Assembly (NCBI GenBank): GCA_016183565.1
Contig: JACPEJ010000004.1
Span: 41,178-105,177 of the forward strand
Reading direction: 5' to 3'
DNA: 64,000 nt
DNA from: Candidatus Blackburnbacteria bacterium
GTDB taxonomy: Bacteria; Patescibacteriota; Microgenomatia; UBA8517; UBA10165
How positions within the stretch are numbered: the first letter of the stretch is position 1; each line of letters begins with the position of its first letter. The notes beneath the pieces were generated by a model. That model saw only the letters and a program-made list of their open reading frames with translations. It made no database searches and was not told the DNA's origin. Made by a program: the position numbers and the translations under genes. Positions 5,126-54,426 of the stretch are shown here, piece after piece.

Positions 5126-7386
5126 GAGATTTTAGCTTTTTTCAGAAGCAAAGAATTCGCCACCACAGATGTTGACGAAAAGGCCATTGCTACTGAGGCA
5201 AGAATTGGGCTTAATAAAATTCTAAAAATTGGGTAAAGAGCCCCCATGGCAACAGGTATGAGTATAACATTATACCCGAAAGCCCAAAAAAGATTAGATT
5301 TAATTGTTTTCATTGTTTTTTTAGAAAGCTTTATTGCTCCTACTACTGATCTTAAATCTTTATTAATAAGTGTAATATCTGCAGCCTCTATGGCAACATC
5401 TGTGCCAGTTCCCATTGCGATGCCAACATCAGCAGCAGCTAATGCTGGTGCATCGTTAATACCATCCCCTACCATCGCAACAACCTTTCCTTCAGATTGT
5501 ATCTTTCTTACTTCAGCTTCTTTTTGATCCGGTAATACTTCCGCTAGGACTCTTTTTATTCCAACTTCTTTTGCAATAGCCGTGGCAGTTCTTTTATTAT
5601 CTCCCGTAATCATAGCAACCTCGATATCTAATTTTTCAAGGGCTTTAACTCCTTCTTTTGCAGAATCTTTCAGTGTGTCAGCAACTGCTATCAATCCTAC
5701 AACTTTTCCTTTAAGTGCTAGGATCATAACAGTCTTTCCTTCACTTTCCAGCCTTGCAAGGGGACGCCTTGCAGGGCTAGTGTCGACTTTTTCTTTCTCC
5801 ATTAACCGGGTGTTCCCCAGTAGCACGCAATCCCCATGTACTTTGCCTTCTACGCCGTGCCCAGGTATGGCCCTAAACCCTTCGACTTTACTCAGAACAA
5901 GATTCTCTTCCTCAGCTTTAGTAACAATTGCTTCGGCAAGGGAATGTTCGGAGCCTTTTTCGATAGATGCTGCTAACTGTAGGATAGTTTGTAGGTTGTA
6001 GGTTGTAGGTTGTAGGGGCATTACATCTGTCACCTTCGGCTTTCCTTGTGTCAAAGTTCCGGTTTTGTCAAAAATAATTGTCTTAACTTTATGGGCTGTT
6101 TCTAAACTTTCCGCGTCTTTTATTAAAATTCCCTGTTCAGCACCTTTTCCAGTGCCAACCATAATAGCAGTAGGAGTCGCAAGACCCATTGCACAAGGAC
6201 AGGCGATAATAAGAACCGCAACTGTGTTCAGAAGTGCAAATAAAAGTGCAGGTTGAGGGCCAAAGTCATACCAAAGCACAAACGTGGTAGTTGCGAGTAT
6301 TATCACTACTGGTACAAAGTAGGAAGAAATAAGGTCAACTAGTTTTTGAATAGGAGCTTTGCTTGCTTGAGCTTCTTCAACAAGTCTTATGATTTGCGAA
6401 AGCATGGTTTCCATCCCCACTTTAGTGGCTTTATATGTAAATGTTCCGGTTTTATTTATAGTTCCTCCGATAACTGTATCCCCTTTTAACTTGTCGACAG
6501 GAATACTTTCCCCTGTAACCATTGATTCATCAATTGAGGACTCGCCATCTAAGATTGTTCCATCAACTGGTATTTTTTCGCCCGGTCTTACCCGAATAAT
6601 ATCACCAAGCTCAACTTCTCCTATTGGTACATCGACCTCAACTTTTCCCCTAAGAACTTTTGCTGTTTTGGCTTGGAGACCAATGAGTTTTCTTATTGCC
6701 TCTGAAGTGCCAGCGCGGGCTTTTGCTTCAAAATATCTACCTAAAAGAATTAGGGCGATAATTATGACCGGAACATCAAAATATGGCATAGGCTTAATTC
6801 CCAGTGCTTCGACTGTTTCGGGGAAAATAGTCACGAATACTGAGTAGCTGTAGGCCATTGTAGTACCAAGGCTCACTAGGGTGTCCATGTTTGCTGTGCG
6901 ATGTTTAAGAGCGGGGATTGCGGCTTTATAAAATTCCAGTCCAACCCAAAATTGGACTATTGAGGCAAGAACTAGTTGCACTAAAAAGTTTTTTAACACA
7001 GAGGGTGCAAAATCCATCAAAAATGGGAAGCTACCCCATAGAATCAAAACACCAGTAGCCAAAGCGAAAGCAACTTTTTTTCTAAGATTATCAAGCTCTT
7101 TCTTTTTTTGTTCTTTTTCTATTTCTGTGTCTTTTGCTGTTTTTTCCAAGAGCGCTTTGTACCCAACTTGAGAAACAGTAGTAATTATTTGCTCATCCGT
7201 GACTTTTTTGGGATCATAAGAAATATTCGCTTTTTCTGTTGCAAAATTTACCTGTGCTTCCCTCACCCCTTCTACTTTTTCCAAAGCACGTTCAATAACT
7301 CTTACGCAAGAAGCACAGTGCATACCTTTAATGAGAAAGGTTGTAGTGAGTAGGTTGTAGTTTTTAGGTTGTAGGTTGTAGGTCAT
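5122..7386 (-). CDS. copA: copper-translocating P1B-type ATPase
   Basis: N-terminal HMA GMHCASC; CPC motif ([19 protein letters not shown]); DKTGTLT phosphorylation site; [10 protein letters not shown] hinge. Confidence 0.9.
5750..5780. repeat. palindromic (ccttgcaagg)x2 element, copy inside copA
   Basis: agccttgcaaggggacgccttgcagggctag; encodes the in-frame insert LARLESEG in CopA. Confidence 0.7.
5989..6017. repeat. tandem heptamer repeat (ggttgta)x4 inside copA
   Basis: tgtaggttgtaggttgtaggttgtagg; translated in-frame as [13 protein letters not shown] in CopA. Confidence 0.7.
7339..7360. repeat. left 22-bp inverted repeat flanking the IVS-protein cassette
   Basis: ggttgtagtgagtaggttgtag; perfect reverse complement of 7752..7773. 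Confidence 0.75.
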
Positions 7387-7736
7387 TTCTGTAACACATT
7401 GATTAATTTATTAAGCATCTTCATTATTTCTTGAAGTAAATTATTTACACTATCGAATTCTACCTGACTGATGTAACCAATTTTCAATGCTATGAATAAC
7501 TGTGTTTCTAGCTCAGCACCAGAGCCAAACGATATCCTAAGAAATTGGATGTACTCTGCTTTATGTCCCCGTCTCTGACCCTCCGCAATATTCGAAGGAA
7601 TAGCAACAGTGCATCTTCTTATTTGAGAAATTAATCCATACAACTCATTCTTAGGAAAACTCTCTGTAATTCTATATGCAATAATGCATAGATCAATCGA
7701 TTTTTGCCATACTGTTAAATCTTTATAAGAATTCAT
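7383..7736 (-). CDS. four-helix-bundle protein (23S rRNA intervening-sequence protein family)
   Basis: 117 aa; family pattern [50 protein letters not shown]...[16 protein letters not shown]. Confidence 0.8.
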
Positions 7737-7751
7737 CCTCTCGCTCTTAAG

Positions 7752-7773
7752 CTACAACCTACTCACTACAACC
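7752..7773. repeat. right 22-bp inverted repeat flanking the IVS-protein cassette
   Basis: ctacaacctactcactacaacc. Confidence 0.75.
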
Positions 7774-7775
7774 TA

Positions 7776-52450: not shown

Positions 52451-52657
52451 TCAGTGTCCATTGACCACCTTTCTGATCTGGGCAAACCATCTGTCCAAAA
52501 TCCGGGGGCCGTGGATCGCGAACATAAATGTGTTCGCGATGGCCGTCAGCGAGAAAACTACAGCCGCCCCAAGCACAATCTCTGGCGGCATCCACGATCC
52601 GGTCACGATCAGCACTGCCAAGACTGCTCCGATCCCTAAGAGCACTAACGGTAGCAT
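52451..52657 (-). CDS. hypothetical small membrane protein in GC-rich island
   Basis: 68 aa with two TM helices; GC-rich. Confidence 0.3.
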   Translation of the reverse strand: MLPLVLLGIGAVLAVLIVTGSWMPPEIVLGAAVVFSLTAIANTFMFAIHGPRILDRWFAQIRKVVNGH

Positions 52658-52870
52658 CTCTCTCCTCTCCCTTGATATTTGATGTGCGAACTTCCAGGTT
52701 CCTCAAGAGCGAACTCTCGAGTCTGAAAGACATTTTCTAAGTGTGGGCATACTATATCACAGAAAGGACCAAAAATCAAGTATTATGGGATAAAAAGTAC
52801 CGTGGGGCTGATTTGACAACAATCTAAGACCTGACTCGGCTTTGAAGCTAGGTTATGGTAAAATACGTAT

Positions 52871-53461
52871 ATGATTCGGAAGATATTGCGTACAACTGAT
52901 CCCAAATTGAGAACAATCTCTAAGCCAGTTCAAAAAGTCGACAAGAAACTTCTAAAGCTCTTGCGTGATTTAGAGGATACAGTGAAGGCCCAAAAAGACC
53001 CGGAGGGTATTGGCCTTGCTGCACCCCAAATCGGTGAGTTCGTATGTGTGTTTGTAATTCGGGACAAACACCAAATCAAAACTTTCATAAACCCTGAAAT
53101 TGTAAAAAGTTCAAAAAAGACTAATGATCCCAAGAAAAAACCAGAAGAAGAAGAGTATTTTATGGAAGGTTGTCTCTCGCTTCCCCACTATTACGGGCCT
53201 GTTGAACGCGCTTTGTCTGTTACGGTAAAATACCAAGTTCCTCAACTACAACCTACAGCCTACGGTTCGACTGTCCTGAGCTCACCGTCGAAGGACAACC
53301 TACATACTTTACAAAAGACCTTCCGAGGTTTTATAGCCCAAGTAATACAACATGAGATTGACCATCTAAAGGGTAGGGTTTTTACAGAGCGCTTGATTGA
53401 GCAGAAACGAAAACTTTTTAAGCTTTACGGTGACCATTGGGATGAGGTTGAATTGCCATGA
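52871..53461 (+). CDS. def: peptide deformylase
   Basis: GIGLAAPQIG; EGCLS; QHEIDHLKG metal-binding motifs, with lineage-specific inserts. Confidence 0.8.
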   Translation: MIRKILRTTDPKLRTISKPVQKVDKKLLKLLRDLEDTVKAQKDPEGIGLAAPQIGEFVCVFVIRDKHQIKTFINPEIVKSSKKTNDPKKKPEEEEYFMEGCLSLPHYYGPVERALSVTVKYQVPQLQPTAYGSTVLSSPSKDNLHTLQKTFRGFIAQVIQHEIDHLKGRVFTERLIEQKRKLFKLYGDHWDEVELP

Positions 53462-54426
53462 ACAAGATTGTTTTCTTTGGGACTCCAGACTATGTTTTGC
53501 CCGTACTTGATACACTGAAAAACCACGGGTATGAAATTGCAGCAGTCGTAACTCAACCCCCGAAGCTAGTTGGTAGAAAACAAATACTGACTCCCTCCCC
53601 TGTTGCTCAGTGGGCAGAAAAACAAGGTATTCGGGTTATTGACGAGTCGCCAAAAAAGATTGTTAACACGCTGGAAGAACTAGATGCAGAAGTTGGAATC
53701 TTGGAAGCTTACGGTAGAATCTTGCCACTTGAAATCCTTAATGTTTTTCCCCAAGGCATAGTAAATGTCCATCCCTCACTTTTGCCAAGATGGCGAGGCG
53801 CATCTCCTATTGAGGCAACTATTGTAGCTGGAGATAAGGTAACAGGAGTTACAATAATAAGGCTTGATGAGGAAATCGATCACGGGCCTATGCTTACACA
53901 ATTTACTGAAGAAGTGAGATCAGATGATACCAAAATTACCTTGCGCTCAAGACTTTTCCGAAAAGCAGCAGATGAGCTGGTTCGAGCTTTGCCTCTTTAT
54001 CTAGAAGGAAAACTTGAGCTTAAAGAGCAAGATCATTCGAAGGTAACTTATACAACCCTAATTCAAAAAGATCATGGCTTTATCCCTCCACAATACATTG
54101 CATTAGCCTTGCAAGGGGACGCCTTGCAAGGCTATGAGCGGTATGAGTGGTTGATTCCGTTTGTCAAAAACTTCACCCTTCACCCTTCACCCTTCACCCT
54201 CGAACGTTTCATCCGCGCTCTTGATCCCTGGCCAGGAGCTTGGACGTTTGTTAAGCTAGGAAGCCATAATGCTATGAAGCAATCGCGCTTAAAACTACTC
54301 GTGGCTCACACAGAAAAAGGCTCCATAGCTCACCTTGCTCTTGACACTGTCCAGCACGAAGGCAAAAATCCAGTTTCTTGGAAACAGTTTAAGGAAGCTT
54401 ATCCTGAGGCGAGGTTTGAAAACTAA
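53458..54426 (+). CDS. fmt: methionyl-tRNA formyltransferase
   Basis: N-terminal formyltransferase domain (IVFFGTPDYVLPVLDTL ... HPSLLPRWRGASPIEATI); follows def in the classic def-fmt operon. Confidence 0.9.
   Translation: MNKIVFFGTPDYVLPVLDTLKNHGYEIAAVVTQPPKLVGRKQILTPSPVAQWAEKQGIRVIDESPKKIVNTLEELDAEVGILEAYGRILPLEILNVFPQGIVNVHPSLLPRWRGASPIEATIVAGDKVTGVTIIRLDEEIDHGPMLTQFTEEVRSDDTKITLRSRLFRKAADELVRALPLYLEGKLELKEQDHSKVTYTTLIQKDHGFIPPQYIALALQGDALQGYERYEWLIPFVKNFTLHPSPFTLERFIRALDPWPGAWTFVKLGSHNAMKQSRLKLLVAHTEKGSIAHLALDTVQHEGKNPVSWKQFKEAYPEARFEN
54105..54133. repeat. palindromic (ccttgcaagg)x2 element inside fmt
   Basis: agccttgcaaggggacgccttgcaaggct; encodes in-frame [11 protein letters not shown]. 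Confidence 0.7.
54171..54193. repeat. tandem heptamer (cttcacc)x3 inside fmt
   Basis: cttcacccttcacccttcaccc; encodes FTLHPSPFTL; same heptamer as in recR. Confidence 0.6.

Follow-up and report, generated by a model that had tools for sequence, protein, structure and literature searches.

REP elements of the REP/RAYT systems (REPtrons; REPINs) are short, high-copy palindromes of 20–40 nt with CT next to them and, on the 5′ side, an xTAG tag whose TAG can serve as a stop codon (PMC3733652, PMC8266576). They are mostly extragenic, form genome-specific families and are found on either side of a gene for a Y1/HUH transposase. Within the GTAG guide, A3G4 determines the CT adjoining the REP at which the enzyme TnpA(REP) cuts (PMC8266576). 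Some REP families have degenerate tags. Intragenic REPs have also been described, namely GTAG REPs of Opitutus terrae and RPE-4 and RPE-6 of Rickettsia conorii; the latter two are classed as CGTC REPs, which have no known transposase (Di Nocera et al. 2013, PMC3733652).

Insertion sequences of the IS200/IS605 family encode a Y1/HUH transposase, and their hairpin ends are recognised in single-stranded DNA. A 5′ guide tetranucleotide picks the cleavage sites, and insertion occurs 3′ of a short target without duplication. Their left end differs from the right one, complete elements are present in multiple copies, and tnpB is often part of them. RPE-1-type elements are palindromes of ∼100–150 bp that lie in frame in housekeeping genes of Rickettsia and are translated as extra segments of 30–50 residues; neither an occurrence outside Rickettsia nor a transposase associated with them is known to us. 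In 2008, Elhai and colleagues reportedly described cyanobacterial small dispersed repeats (SDR) of 21–27 nt, which form hairpins, occur in open reading frames, can be nested and are inferred to be mobile; we know of no transposase identified for them. The mode of REP spread is still unsettled, and we know of no REP transposition seen in vivo.

The hairpin repeat described here is found in a 64-kb window (the whole stretch of DNA analysed, 64,000 nt) from a Candidatus Blackburnbacteria genome. It is probably a REP-type palindrome belonging to a REP–RAYT system of CPR bacteria (Microgenomates), because related copies flank a Y1 transposase gene, as in the RAYT architecture, and its anatomy is REP-like. 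This adds a new family to an already known kind of element. A sequence-only reading had presented it as an independently evolved kind for which RPE was the only precedent; REP anatomy, the flanking of a Y1 gene and the known intragenic REPs (PMC3733652) contradict this. A literature search found no published description of REP/RAYT for CPR bacteria.

The hairpin shares with REP elements its small size, an xTAG tag, adjacent CT, mostly extragenic copies around a Y1 gene and genome-specific families, but its tag starts with T or C and not G and is mirrored at both sides, so that the whole unit is a 31–33-nt palindrome. Genomes differ in the loop only, and the same stem recurs throughout many candidate phyla. 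A quarter of the copies lie in open reading frames, one of them inside the transposase gene itself, and the transposase belongs to a distant branch that scores below the NCBIfam RAYT cutoff. Like the intragenic REPs (Di Nocera et al. 2013), the genic copies are small in-frame palindromes that add short peptides, and related species sometimes share a site; sequences, tags and hosts differ, and the link to a transposase is clear, unlike that of CGTC REPs. As with RPE-1 and its relatives, copies are in frame in housekeeping genes and would be translated as extra segments, but the element measures 27–31 nt and its host is a CPR bacterium. Recognition of the hairpin in single-stranded DNA, guide-directed cleavage and insertion without duplication, as in IS200/IS605, are probable for the CPR hairpin by analogy. 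With the SDR it has in common very small, hairpin-forming and sometimes nested dispersed repeats in open reading frames, which we infer to be mobile here too; phylum and sequences are different.

Hairpin copies in the window

The consensus, TAG-CCTYGCAAGG-N5-CCTTGCRAGG-CTA, is present in seven copies in the window where none is expected by chance, and the locations first reported are borne out. A search for CCTTGCAAGG-N5-CCTTGCAAGG with up to three mismatches recovered six of these (5752, 15428, 29736, 41037, 50518 and 54107) and nothing in 100 dinucleotide shuffles. The seventh, a degenerate copy at 42703, was found by a repeat search of the window. Each copy is laid out as a 31-nt palindrome consisting of TAG, arms of 10 nt on either side of a 5-nt loop, and CTA. 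The loop GGACG/CGTCC, which had been given as the spacer of all copies, holds for four of the seven. The other three (15428, 42707 and 50518) have TCTCA/TGAGA, with mutually complementary arms CCTCGCAAGG..CCTTGCGAGG. No Rfam family matches the hairpin.

Intact window copies are predicted to fold as single-stranded DNA with energies of −12 to −17 kcal/mol (z −4 to −9), and the three degraded copies (41031, 42701 and 50512) with −6 to −9.5 kcal/mol. The hairpin is not an assembly artefact, since an independent Logan assembly is 100% identical to window positions 1–7547, the copA copy included.

Two copies are intergenic. One (15425–15455, loop TCTCA) has perfect CCTCGCAAGG/CCTTGCGAGG arms, lies between two minus-strand genes and has a predicted single-stranded fold of −17 kcal/mol. 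The other (42704–42734, loop TGAGA) is degenerate, with a 3′ arm decayed to CCTTGTGAAC; it is located between an open reading frame at 41938–42513 (plus strand) and one at 42821–43183 (minus strand), whose 3′ ends face each other.

Host genes and orthologous sites

The remaining five copies are in open reading frames and all keep the frame, as had been claimed; the hosts are confirmed by Pfam. The gene for a copper P-type ATPase (CopA-like; 5122–7386, minus strand; Pfam E1-E2_ATPase, Hydrolase and HMA) carries a copy at 5749–5779 with loop GGACG on the plus strand, one arm mismatch (CCTTGCAGGG) and CAG instead of TAG. In glyA, which encodes serine hydroxymethyltransferase (29337–30665, minus strand; Pfam SHMT), the copy at 29733–29763 is a perfect consensus with loop GGACG. 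The window GlyA is 100% identical to an NCBI protein named for a Candidatus Blackburnbacteria MAG. The dprA gene (40264–41373, minus strand; Pfam DNA_processg_A and DprA_WH) has a copy at 41034–41064 with loop CGTCC on the plus strand and degraded ends (AAGA, CTG), which encodes QSCKGTPCKA; in its frame a TAG would end translation, and CAG stands in that place. A degraded copy with loop TGAGA and CAG instead of TAG is found at 50515–50545, encoding QSRKVRPCKP, in a gene for a Wzy_C (O-antigen ligase-like) protein with TPR repeats (49717–51924, plus strand; Pfam). The fifth, at 54104–54134 in the methionyl-tRNA formyltransferase gene fmt (53458–54426, plus strand; Pfam Formyl_trans_N and Formyl_trans_C, with matches to Fmt in the PDB), is a perfect consensus that encodes ALQGDALQG. 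The fmt and glyA copies are identical to each other over 32 nt.

Comparison with orthologues gives different outcomes at different sites. The glyA copy adds 9 amino acids relative to 433-amino-acid relatives. At the orthologous site of one relative the gene is empty and reads GTT^CTAAAG, whereas the window and a second relative have 27 nt at the same point, with a loop in that second allele that differs from the window's. The target site is taken from this one empty glyA allele, in a relative of 73% identity. In an AlphaFold model, GlyA residues 301–309 are coil with pLDDT <50, between a helix (277–299) and a strand (312–315), which supports a disordered loop. The dprA copy adds 7 amino acids relative to the DprA of the same empty-site relative, and the copA copy brings no net change in length compared with CopA homologues, native residues being replaced. 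The net change is thus not constant between sites (glyA +9, dprA +7, copA 0). The proposed gain of ∼10 residues per copy fits glyA, roughly fits dprA and fails for copA, and the suggestion that insertions fall in surface loops is upheld for GlyA only.

The copA site is also occupied in a relative of 67% identity, and the orthologous copA copy in L089 has the loop CCAGG. Other Microgenomates fmt genes have semi-intact or decayed copies at the orthologous site. The fmt site is ancient, and that its copies are decayed in relatives and pristine in the window suggests that the sequence has been renewed in situ. As the fmt and copA sites are occupied in relatives, they are old sites with renewed-looking sequence and not fresh insertions, which goes against the idea of an actively spreading repeat. 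Taken together, the alignments support a dispersed palindromic repeat that lies in frame within conserved genes and whose orthologous sites can be filled or empty, and to this extent the RPE-like behaviour first proposed is confirmed.

Relatives in Patescibacteria and the associated Y1 transposase

A scan with the hairpin pattern gave more than 116 matching loci among the matches listed, mostly in Patescibacteria. Many Patescibacteria MAGs carry the same hairpin, with a constant stem and a 5-nt loop that is largely genome-specific; the dominant loop of the genome concerned is present in 75 of 91 copies. Flanks were analysed in 95 non-redundant copies, selected for AG..CT flanks from 139 non-redundant pattern matches. 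These display a stem of 10–13 bp, a 5-nt loop and flanks of the form YYAG...CTRR, with T in 77% and C in 18% at position −3, and A in 77% and G in 21% at +3. The first base of the tag is T in 49%, C in 29% and G in 9%, so that the tag reads YTAG rather than the canonical GTAG, and it is mirrored at the other side. CT directly follows the stem in all 95 copies, CT having been a selection criterion, and by analogy represents a putative cleavage site. The CPR hairpin has no T-run on its 3′ side, in contrast to non-CPR, terminator-like matches to the same pattern.

Counting related loci and the window, 77 of 103 copies are outside long open reading frames and 26 (∼25%) are inside, a distribution that does not fit a coding-region element as initially envisaged; the window is atypical, with five of its seven copies in genes. 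The 26 genic copies are read in the three frames 12, 12 and 2 times. The rare frame is that in which TAG is a stop codon, and both of its copies have CAG.

In at least 16 related genomes, hairpin copies flank a gene of ∼230 codons for a Pfam Y1_Tnp protein, and copies are often inside the gene as well. Open reading frames beside or between copies matched Y1_Tnp above the gathering cutoff in nine of nine cases. An HMM built from these nine detected at least 17 genes of this type, spread over at least 16 genomes, and almost all of them have copies 25–60 nt beyond their ends. When three homologues (P0128, named for Blackburnbacteria, P0180 and P0230) were picked by protein alone, all had a hairpin 27–61 nt upstream and one internal copy. 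The internal copy in the Y1 gene is situated just after the catalytic tyrosine. HUH (CLMPNHFHF) and Tyr (YIHKQA / YIHxNP) motifs are conserved in the Y1 proteins.

The only NCBIfam match is NF047646 (REP-associated tyrosine transposase), at 32–38 bits, far below the cutoff of 80; judged by sequence, the CPR Y1 protein is a distant RAYT relative and not an equivalog. No solved structure matches it by sequence, and the 64-kb window itself has no Y1_Tnp gene. Copies flanking the Y1 gene share one loop orientation, whereas classic RAYT genes have inverted flanking REPs. As the stems are symmetric, orientation of the CPR hairpin can be read only from the loop. Unlike IS200/IS605 elements, the Y1 gene has the same 25-nt hairpin at both ends, solo hairpins far outnumber the genes, and no tnpB is present beside the transposase in the gene tables of four loci (L119–L122). 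Y1 proteins are 62–80% identical across many lineages, and the clusters with listed contig counts are found on 1–4 contigs each, which is compatible with vertical single-copy inheritance.

Mechanism, alternatives and significance

By analogy, the unit of YTAG, stem-loop and CT matches the layout of guide and cleavage site in characterised REPs. From what is known of TnpA(REP) enzymes, the CPR transposase would bind the hairpin when the DNA is single-stranded, choose the CT cleavage site by means of the tag's AG, and cut and rejoin strands. The 25-nt hairpin plus CT would be copied to sites ending in (T)TAG, a gain of 27 nt that would keep the reading frame. Most copies would end up between genes; a copy in a gene would persist only if the protein tolerates some nine additional coil residues and the reading frame does not make the tag's TAG a stop codon. 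Copies at old sites may then be overwritten by the current loop variant of the genome, via strand exchange between copies or gene conversion, and this would account for the different genome-typical loops at orthologous sites and for the length-neutral replacement in copA. In its strongest form, which is speculative and which we rate as rather doubtful, a CPR RAYT would both seed new hairpins and continually overwrite old ones, including those in essential genes and in its own gene. If true, loop 'dialects' at orthologous sites, the pristine fmt copy and the neutral replacement in copA would all result from RAYT overwriting, a naturally occurring process in which the enzyme would replace ∼27 nt at tagged sites by a templated copy.

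It is unlikely that the Y1 gene and its hairpins are an ordinary IS200/IS605-family insertion sequence, with solo hairpins as minimal non-autonomous (PATE/MITE-like) derivatives. Pfam does place the protein in Y1_Tnp, an IS200-like family, the RAYT equivalog model is matched only below its cutoff, and a shared loop orientation of flanking hairpins is expected if one strand is active. However, RAYT is the sole NCBIfam model matched, and the lack of an adjoining tnpB in L119–L122, the identical hairpins at both ends, the great excess of solo hairpins, and a protein whose conservation and low contig counts fit vertical single-copy inheritance speak against it.

A hairpin conserved for a host function and not mobile, such as a terminator or RNA stability element, a protein binding site or, in competence-dependent bacteria, a DNA-uptake sequence, might explain the nearly invariant stem with its variable loop across many candidate phyla, the ∼75% of copies outside long open reading frames, the short spacers that hold both intergenic window copies and the pristine fmt copy at an ancient site. 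We regard it as very improbable: in-frame copies in essential genes are missing from the same site in close relatives, the T-run seen in terminator-like matches outside CPR is lacking, Rfam has no matching family, and the hairpin's close association with a transposase gene accounts for its spread. A secondary, co-opted function may nevertheless exist. Hardly credible is an RPE-like selfish repeat of coding regions, independently evolved, without a dedicated enzyme and now spreading through housekeeping genes. In-frame copies in five window genes, two copies identical over 32 nt and the absence of sequence similarity to any element in the literature searched are in its favour; yet the Y1 transposase associated with the hairpin in at least 16 genomes largely refutes it, and most copies elsewhere are outside long open reading frames, relatives share the fmt and copA sites, which are old, and intragenic REPs are a documented precedent.

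As a REP–RAYT family, the hairpin offers natural before/after alleles in conserved genes, thousands of related transposases and a substrate that is very simple, namely a single 25-nt hairpin with its CT. Annotation of CPR proteins is affected, because short 'SLARxxLARL' or 'ALQGxxLQG' segments are repeat-derived, and contigs may break at hairpin repeats during assembly. The presence of a copy inside the transposase gene itself may point to self-regulation. On the REP–RAYT reading, essential proteins encoded by streamlined CPR genomes of ∼1 Mb are remodelled by such a system.

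Copies, structure and reading frames of the hairpin

A repeat search of the window detects seven dispersed copies of 32 nt each, at 5748, 15424, 29732, 41033, 42703, 50514 and 54103. The pattern CCTTGCAAGG-N5-CCTTGCAAGG, with three mismatches or fewer, has six matches versus none in 100 dinucleotide-preserving shuffles, which bears out the seven-copy repeat described in the sequence-only reading. The flanks extend the unit to a 31-nt palindrome, TAG-CCTYGCAAGG-N5-CCTTGCRAGG-CTA. Four copies (5752, 29736, 41037 and 54107) have arms CCTTGCAAGG and the loop GGACG/CGTCC, as had been proposed for the whole set; the other three (15428, 42707 and 50518) have the loop TCTCA/TGAGA and arms CCTCGCAAGG..CCTTGCGAGG. 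The arm changes in these three are mutually complementary, and thus what is preserved is a long hairpin, not a self-complementary decamer. Window positions 1-7547, the copA copy included, recur at 100% identity in an independent assembly, L127.

Folded as single-stranded DNA, the intact copies have energies of -12 to -17 kcal/mol (z -4 to -9) and three degraded copies have -6 to -9.5. Covariation at stem positions Y4/R22 is weak (63 C-G, 13 T-A, 14 C-A and 11 T-G) and the two sides of the 13th pair vary independently, so there is no evidence for a selected RNA helix. A search of the whole window against Rfam at gathering thresholds gives no match at the hairpins; the sole matches are four tRNA genes at 55786-57036.

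Five window copies are inside open reading frames identified by Pfam (CopA-type ATPase, SHMT, DprA, Wzy_C with TPR, and Fmt), and all five maintain the frame, as the sequence-only reading had stated. The copA and glyA copies translate as SLAR..LARL, and the fmt copy as ALQG..LQG. Those in dprA and the Wzy_C gene are read in the third frame, where the flanking TAG would be a stop codon; both have CAG instead.

The window displays other repeats. Another dispersed repeat (ATCCCGATGTGCAAAGCTATTCCACTCCCGATGTGGAATACGTTGGCACATCGG), ~54 nt long and containing inverted repeats, is found at 14061-14114, 43332-43385 and 50326-50379 (91-100% identity), one copy being inside the Wzy_C open reading frame ~190 nt upstream of the hairpin there. 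Tandem heptamers GGTTGTA/TACAACC are at 5986-6025, 7338-7391, 7749-7783, 53243-53263, 63021-63060 and 63490-63563; two of these arrays are in the copA open reading frame, as 'TYNLQ' repeats at the N-terminus and at residues ~462-466, and the others are at gene ends. CTTCACC heptamers are at 14927-14960 and 54170-54203. The latter array is inside fmt, 40 nt past the hairpin copy, and encodes FTLHPSPFTL within a ~25-30 aa segment that is conserved in Microgenomates Fmt and absent from E. coli Fmt. AT-rich arrays of AATTTTC/AATTTTT in several intergenic regions (17447-17590, 25677-25790, 45634-45770, 49605-49673 and 62012-62120) may represent promoter or UP-like regions.

Association with a Y1 transposase

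In many loci of related genomes, open reading frames of ~225-260 aa are directly beside or between hairpin copies. All nine that were tested score above the gathering cutoff of Pfam Y1_Tnp, the IS200-like HUH tyrosine transposase. An HMM made from these reading frames detects at least 17 genes, spread over 16 genomes or more; nearly all have a hairpin copy 25-60 nt beyond each end. Conserved in the alignment are an N-terminal YYHIYNRGV, the HUH motif CLMPNHFHF and the tyrosine motif YIHKQA or YIHxNP. The family comprises 4221 proteins at E <= 1e-10, with one named Blackburnbacteria transposase; a sequence comparison with the PDB gives no match. The association was also found when homologues were picked by protein similarity only: three of three distinct loci (L119, L121 and L122) carry the hairpin 27-61 nt upstream of the transposase gene and a second copy inside it. 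Hairpins and Y1 gene are thus arranged as REPs are around their RAYT gene. TnpA(REP) cleaves at a CT dinucleotide beside the REP, and A3G4 of the GTAG guide tetranucleotide selects the site (PMC8266576). In the hairpin unit described here, the stem has YTAG on its 5′ side and CT immediately on its 3′ side.

Within the 64-kb window no Y1 gene was found, and a simple HUH regular expression had no match there. The window open reading frame 62317-63018, which weakly matched an IS200 TnpA query in phmmer, encodes NusG with KOW and was rejected.

Many Y1 genes hold an internal hairpin in frame (L025 at 4055, L043 at 7297, L018 at 2925, L119 at 4392, L121 at 10485, L122 at 8386, and others). It is found directly after the catalytic-tyrosine motif, as YIHKQA|LASQGxxLQG, where orthologues with no copy read YIHKQA-LP(S/F)-QPSS. 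Genes with and without the internal copy differ by a net +7 to +11 aa, which varies. At this site one locus, L020, has TTAG-CT-CTAA, which could be a deletion footprint.

The main rival is an ordinary IS200/IS605 element with minimal derivatives. Both ends of the present unit, however, are the same hairpin, and no tnpB adjoins the transposase gene in loci L119-L122. The sole NCBIfam match is to a RAYT model, NF047646 'REP-associated tyrosine transposase', although at 32-38 bits it is well under the 80-bit equivalog cutoff. In addition, the transposase is highly conserved at the protein level, and each cluster covers few contigs. A motif with a purely host function, such as a terminator or an uptake sequence, does not explain the data, as it leaves in-frame genic copies, empty orthologous sites and the transposase link unaccounted for; the hairpin could nevertheless have a secondary function. 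The link to a transposase also contradicts a wholly new element of the Rickettsia palindromic element (RPE) kind that has no enzyme.

Insertion, replacement and proposed renewal in host genes

The window GlyA has 442 aa versus a typical 433 aa in relatives, and the nine extra residues are exactly at the element. Its sequence matches at 100% identity an NCBI protein from a Candidatus Blackburnbacteria MAG, encoded on a 127-kb contig. The relative L117 has an empty allele, GGT GTT^CTA AAG, at which point the window gene has 27 nt (AGCCTTGCAAGGCGTCCCCTTGCAAGG). A further relative, L118, has 27 nt at the same point with a different loop, AACGA. On the other strand TTTAG is directly 5′ of the insertion point in all three alleles, which fits the insertion of a 25-nt hairpin plus CT 3′ of a TTAG-like target, in a single comparison at 73% identity. 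A TA-duplicating (IS630/mariner-like) model was rejected; it predicts a 29-nt gain and a broken frame, which conflicts with the glyA alleles. An AlphaFold model (mean pLDDT 83.8) shows residues 301-309 as a coil of pLDDT <50 that lies between a helix (277-299) and a strand (312-315). Several further relatives display intact or decayed versions at the same site. Elsewhere in the GlyA alignment (columns ~120-145, 240-250 and 300-312), related CPR proteins have other inserts of ~8-19 aa, e.g., FDSAQGKLD, LRRSSGSTT and IDKQSLSLH, which suggests further small insertion elements in these genomes.

The sequence-only reading had each coding copy adding about 10 residues. This holds for glyA and roughly for dprA, where the window protein has seven more residues than the empty L117 allele, but not for copA, where the net length is unchanged. 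At the dprA hot spot, the Blackburnbacteria relative L113 has a different insert, MAPLRSAESSAGQLPRMS. The CopA element segment aligns gap-free to SDSEKELQRLEEEGKT in relatives of ~63-66% identity and also to the A. fulgidus structure, and a homologue of 67% identity (L089) has an element at the same codons with the loop CCAGG; together these indicate that the copA copy is a replacement, not an insertion. In the Wzy_C gene, the region around the copy is too divergent across relatives for a length comparison.

In Fmt, AALQGxxLQ is at the same site across Microgenomates proteins of 50-67% identity. At the DNA level, locus L124 has a semi-intact copy (CCACGAAAGG-GGACG-CCTTGCAAGG), L123 and L125 have decayed copies with common substitutions (CTCTGCAAGG...CCTTACAG), and L126 retains hardly any of the copy. 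Semi-intact and decayed copies at one site in relatives indicate that the fmt insertion is ancient. The window fmt copy is a perfect consensus, identical to the glyA copy over 32 nt.

Truncated proteins 100% identical to the window GlyA (P0008, 318 aa) and Fmt (P0241, 225 aa) come from Logan contigs of <=3,388 nt. The length of P0241 coincides with the Fmt hairpin at residues 216-226, so the repeat may be where these assemblies break.

At orthologous sites the loops differ and are typical of each genome: copA in the window and L089, glyA in the window and L118, and a site common to L035 and L099 (82% nucleotide identity). Across genomes, the hairpins upstream of and within the transposase gene differ in their loops as well. 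Together with the perfect consensus in fmt and the unchanged length of copA, these differences point to concerted evolution of the hairpins. Existing copies would be overwritten by the current loop variant, either by transposase-mediated strand exchange between tagged hairpins or by short-tract gene conversion. The alternative is repeated independent insertion at hot spots, but the substitutions common to L123 and L125 favour, for fmt, an ancient insertion followed by renewal.

Distribution and relation to known REPs

A scan with CCTYGCAAGG-N5-CCTTGCRAGG, one genome per species, gives lower bounds: more than 116 loci among the matches listed, mostly in Patescibacteria (Shapiro-, Levy-, Blackburn-, Woyke- and Gottesmanbacteria and unnamed Microgenomates). 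The stem and TAG/CTA flanks are constant across these loci and the loop is largely genome-specific; among the matches listed, 75 of 91 copies have the dominant loop of their own genome (16 genomes with at least three copies). Matches in Clostridia, Bacteroidales and similar taxa have T-runs after them and no TAG/CTA flanks; as they resemble ordinary terminators, they were excluded. Many other matches are in TPA MAGs titled 'uncultured Gammaproteobacteria' (e.g., L053, L058, L075 and L098), which carry a CPR-type RAYT with hairpins. These are probably mislabelled CPR genomes, because their wzy and fmt order is that of the window and Microgenomates and they also have dprA homologues.

In six Paceibacterota/Nomurabacteria loci (L039, L045, L051, L071, L076 and L114), the stem CCTCGCAAGG..CCTTGCGAGG has the loop ACGGT/ACCGT and no TAG/CTA flanks. 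In L114 a more divergent Y1_Tnp-like open reading frame (HMM E 4e-34) has it at its 3′ end. Parcubacteria may therefore have the system too, with another tag. Structural variants are found at L018 2925, L094 5212, L115 1142, L086 6107 and L088 695; among them are partial tandem duplications, a 12-nt duplication of the tail (GGCTA-CTTGCAAGGCTA) that occurs in two unrelated genomes, and a hairpin that seems to have inserted into another one, just past its ...TGCAG.

The sequence-only reading had described a coding-region repeat. Among the matches listed, however, 26 of 103 copies in related loci and the window are in long open reading frames; it is thus mainly outside them, and the window is unusual with five of seven copies genic. 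By reading frame, the 26 coding copies divide 12 : 12 : 2, and it is in the frame with two copies that TAG is a stop codon. This bias argues that coding copies are translated and filtered by selection.

Literature searches for palindromic elements or RAYTs linked to CPR bacteria gave nothing relevant, and no description of REPs or RAYTs in these bacteria was found in the literature searched. A full-text search for the decamers returned only unrelated primer or viral sequences, and a term search of a HUH phylogenomics paper (PMC6006769) turned up no CPR taxa. The kind is already known from REP–RAYT systems and from REPs inside genes. Di Nocera et al. (2013) describe intragenic REPs and tags that supply stop codons, and class Rickettsia RPE-4 and RPE-6 as CGTC-type REPs (PMC3733652). 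With these precedents and the transposase association, the first proposal, an independently evolved element with the RPE family as its only well-known precedent, is not supported. Among REPs, the CPR hairpin is unusual in its mirrored YTAG tag, in a stem that stays the same across candidate phyla while the loop changes with the genome, and in its high genic fraction. A further unusual trait is the hairpin copy within the CPR transposase gene itself.
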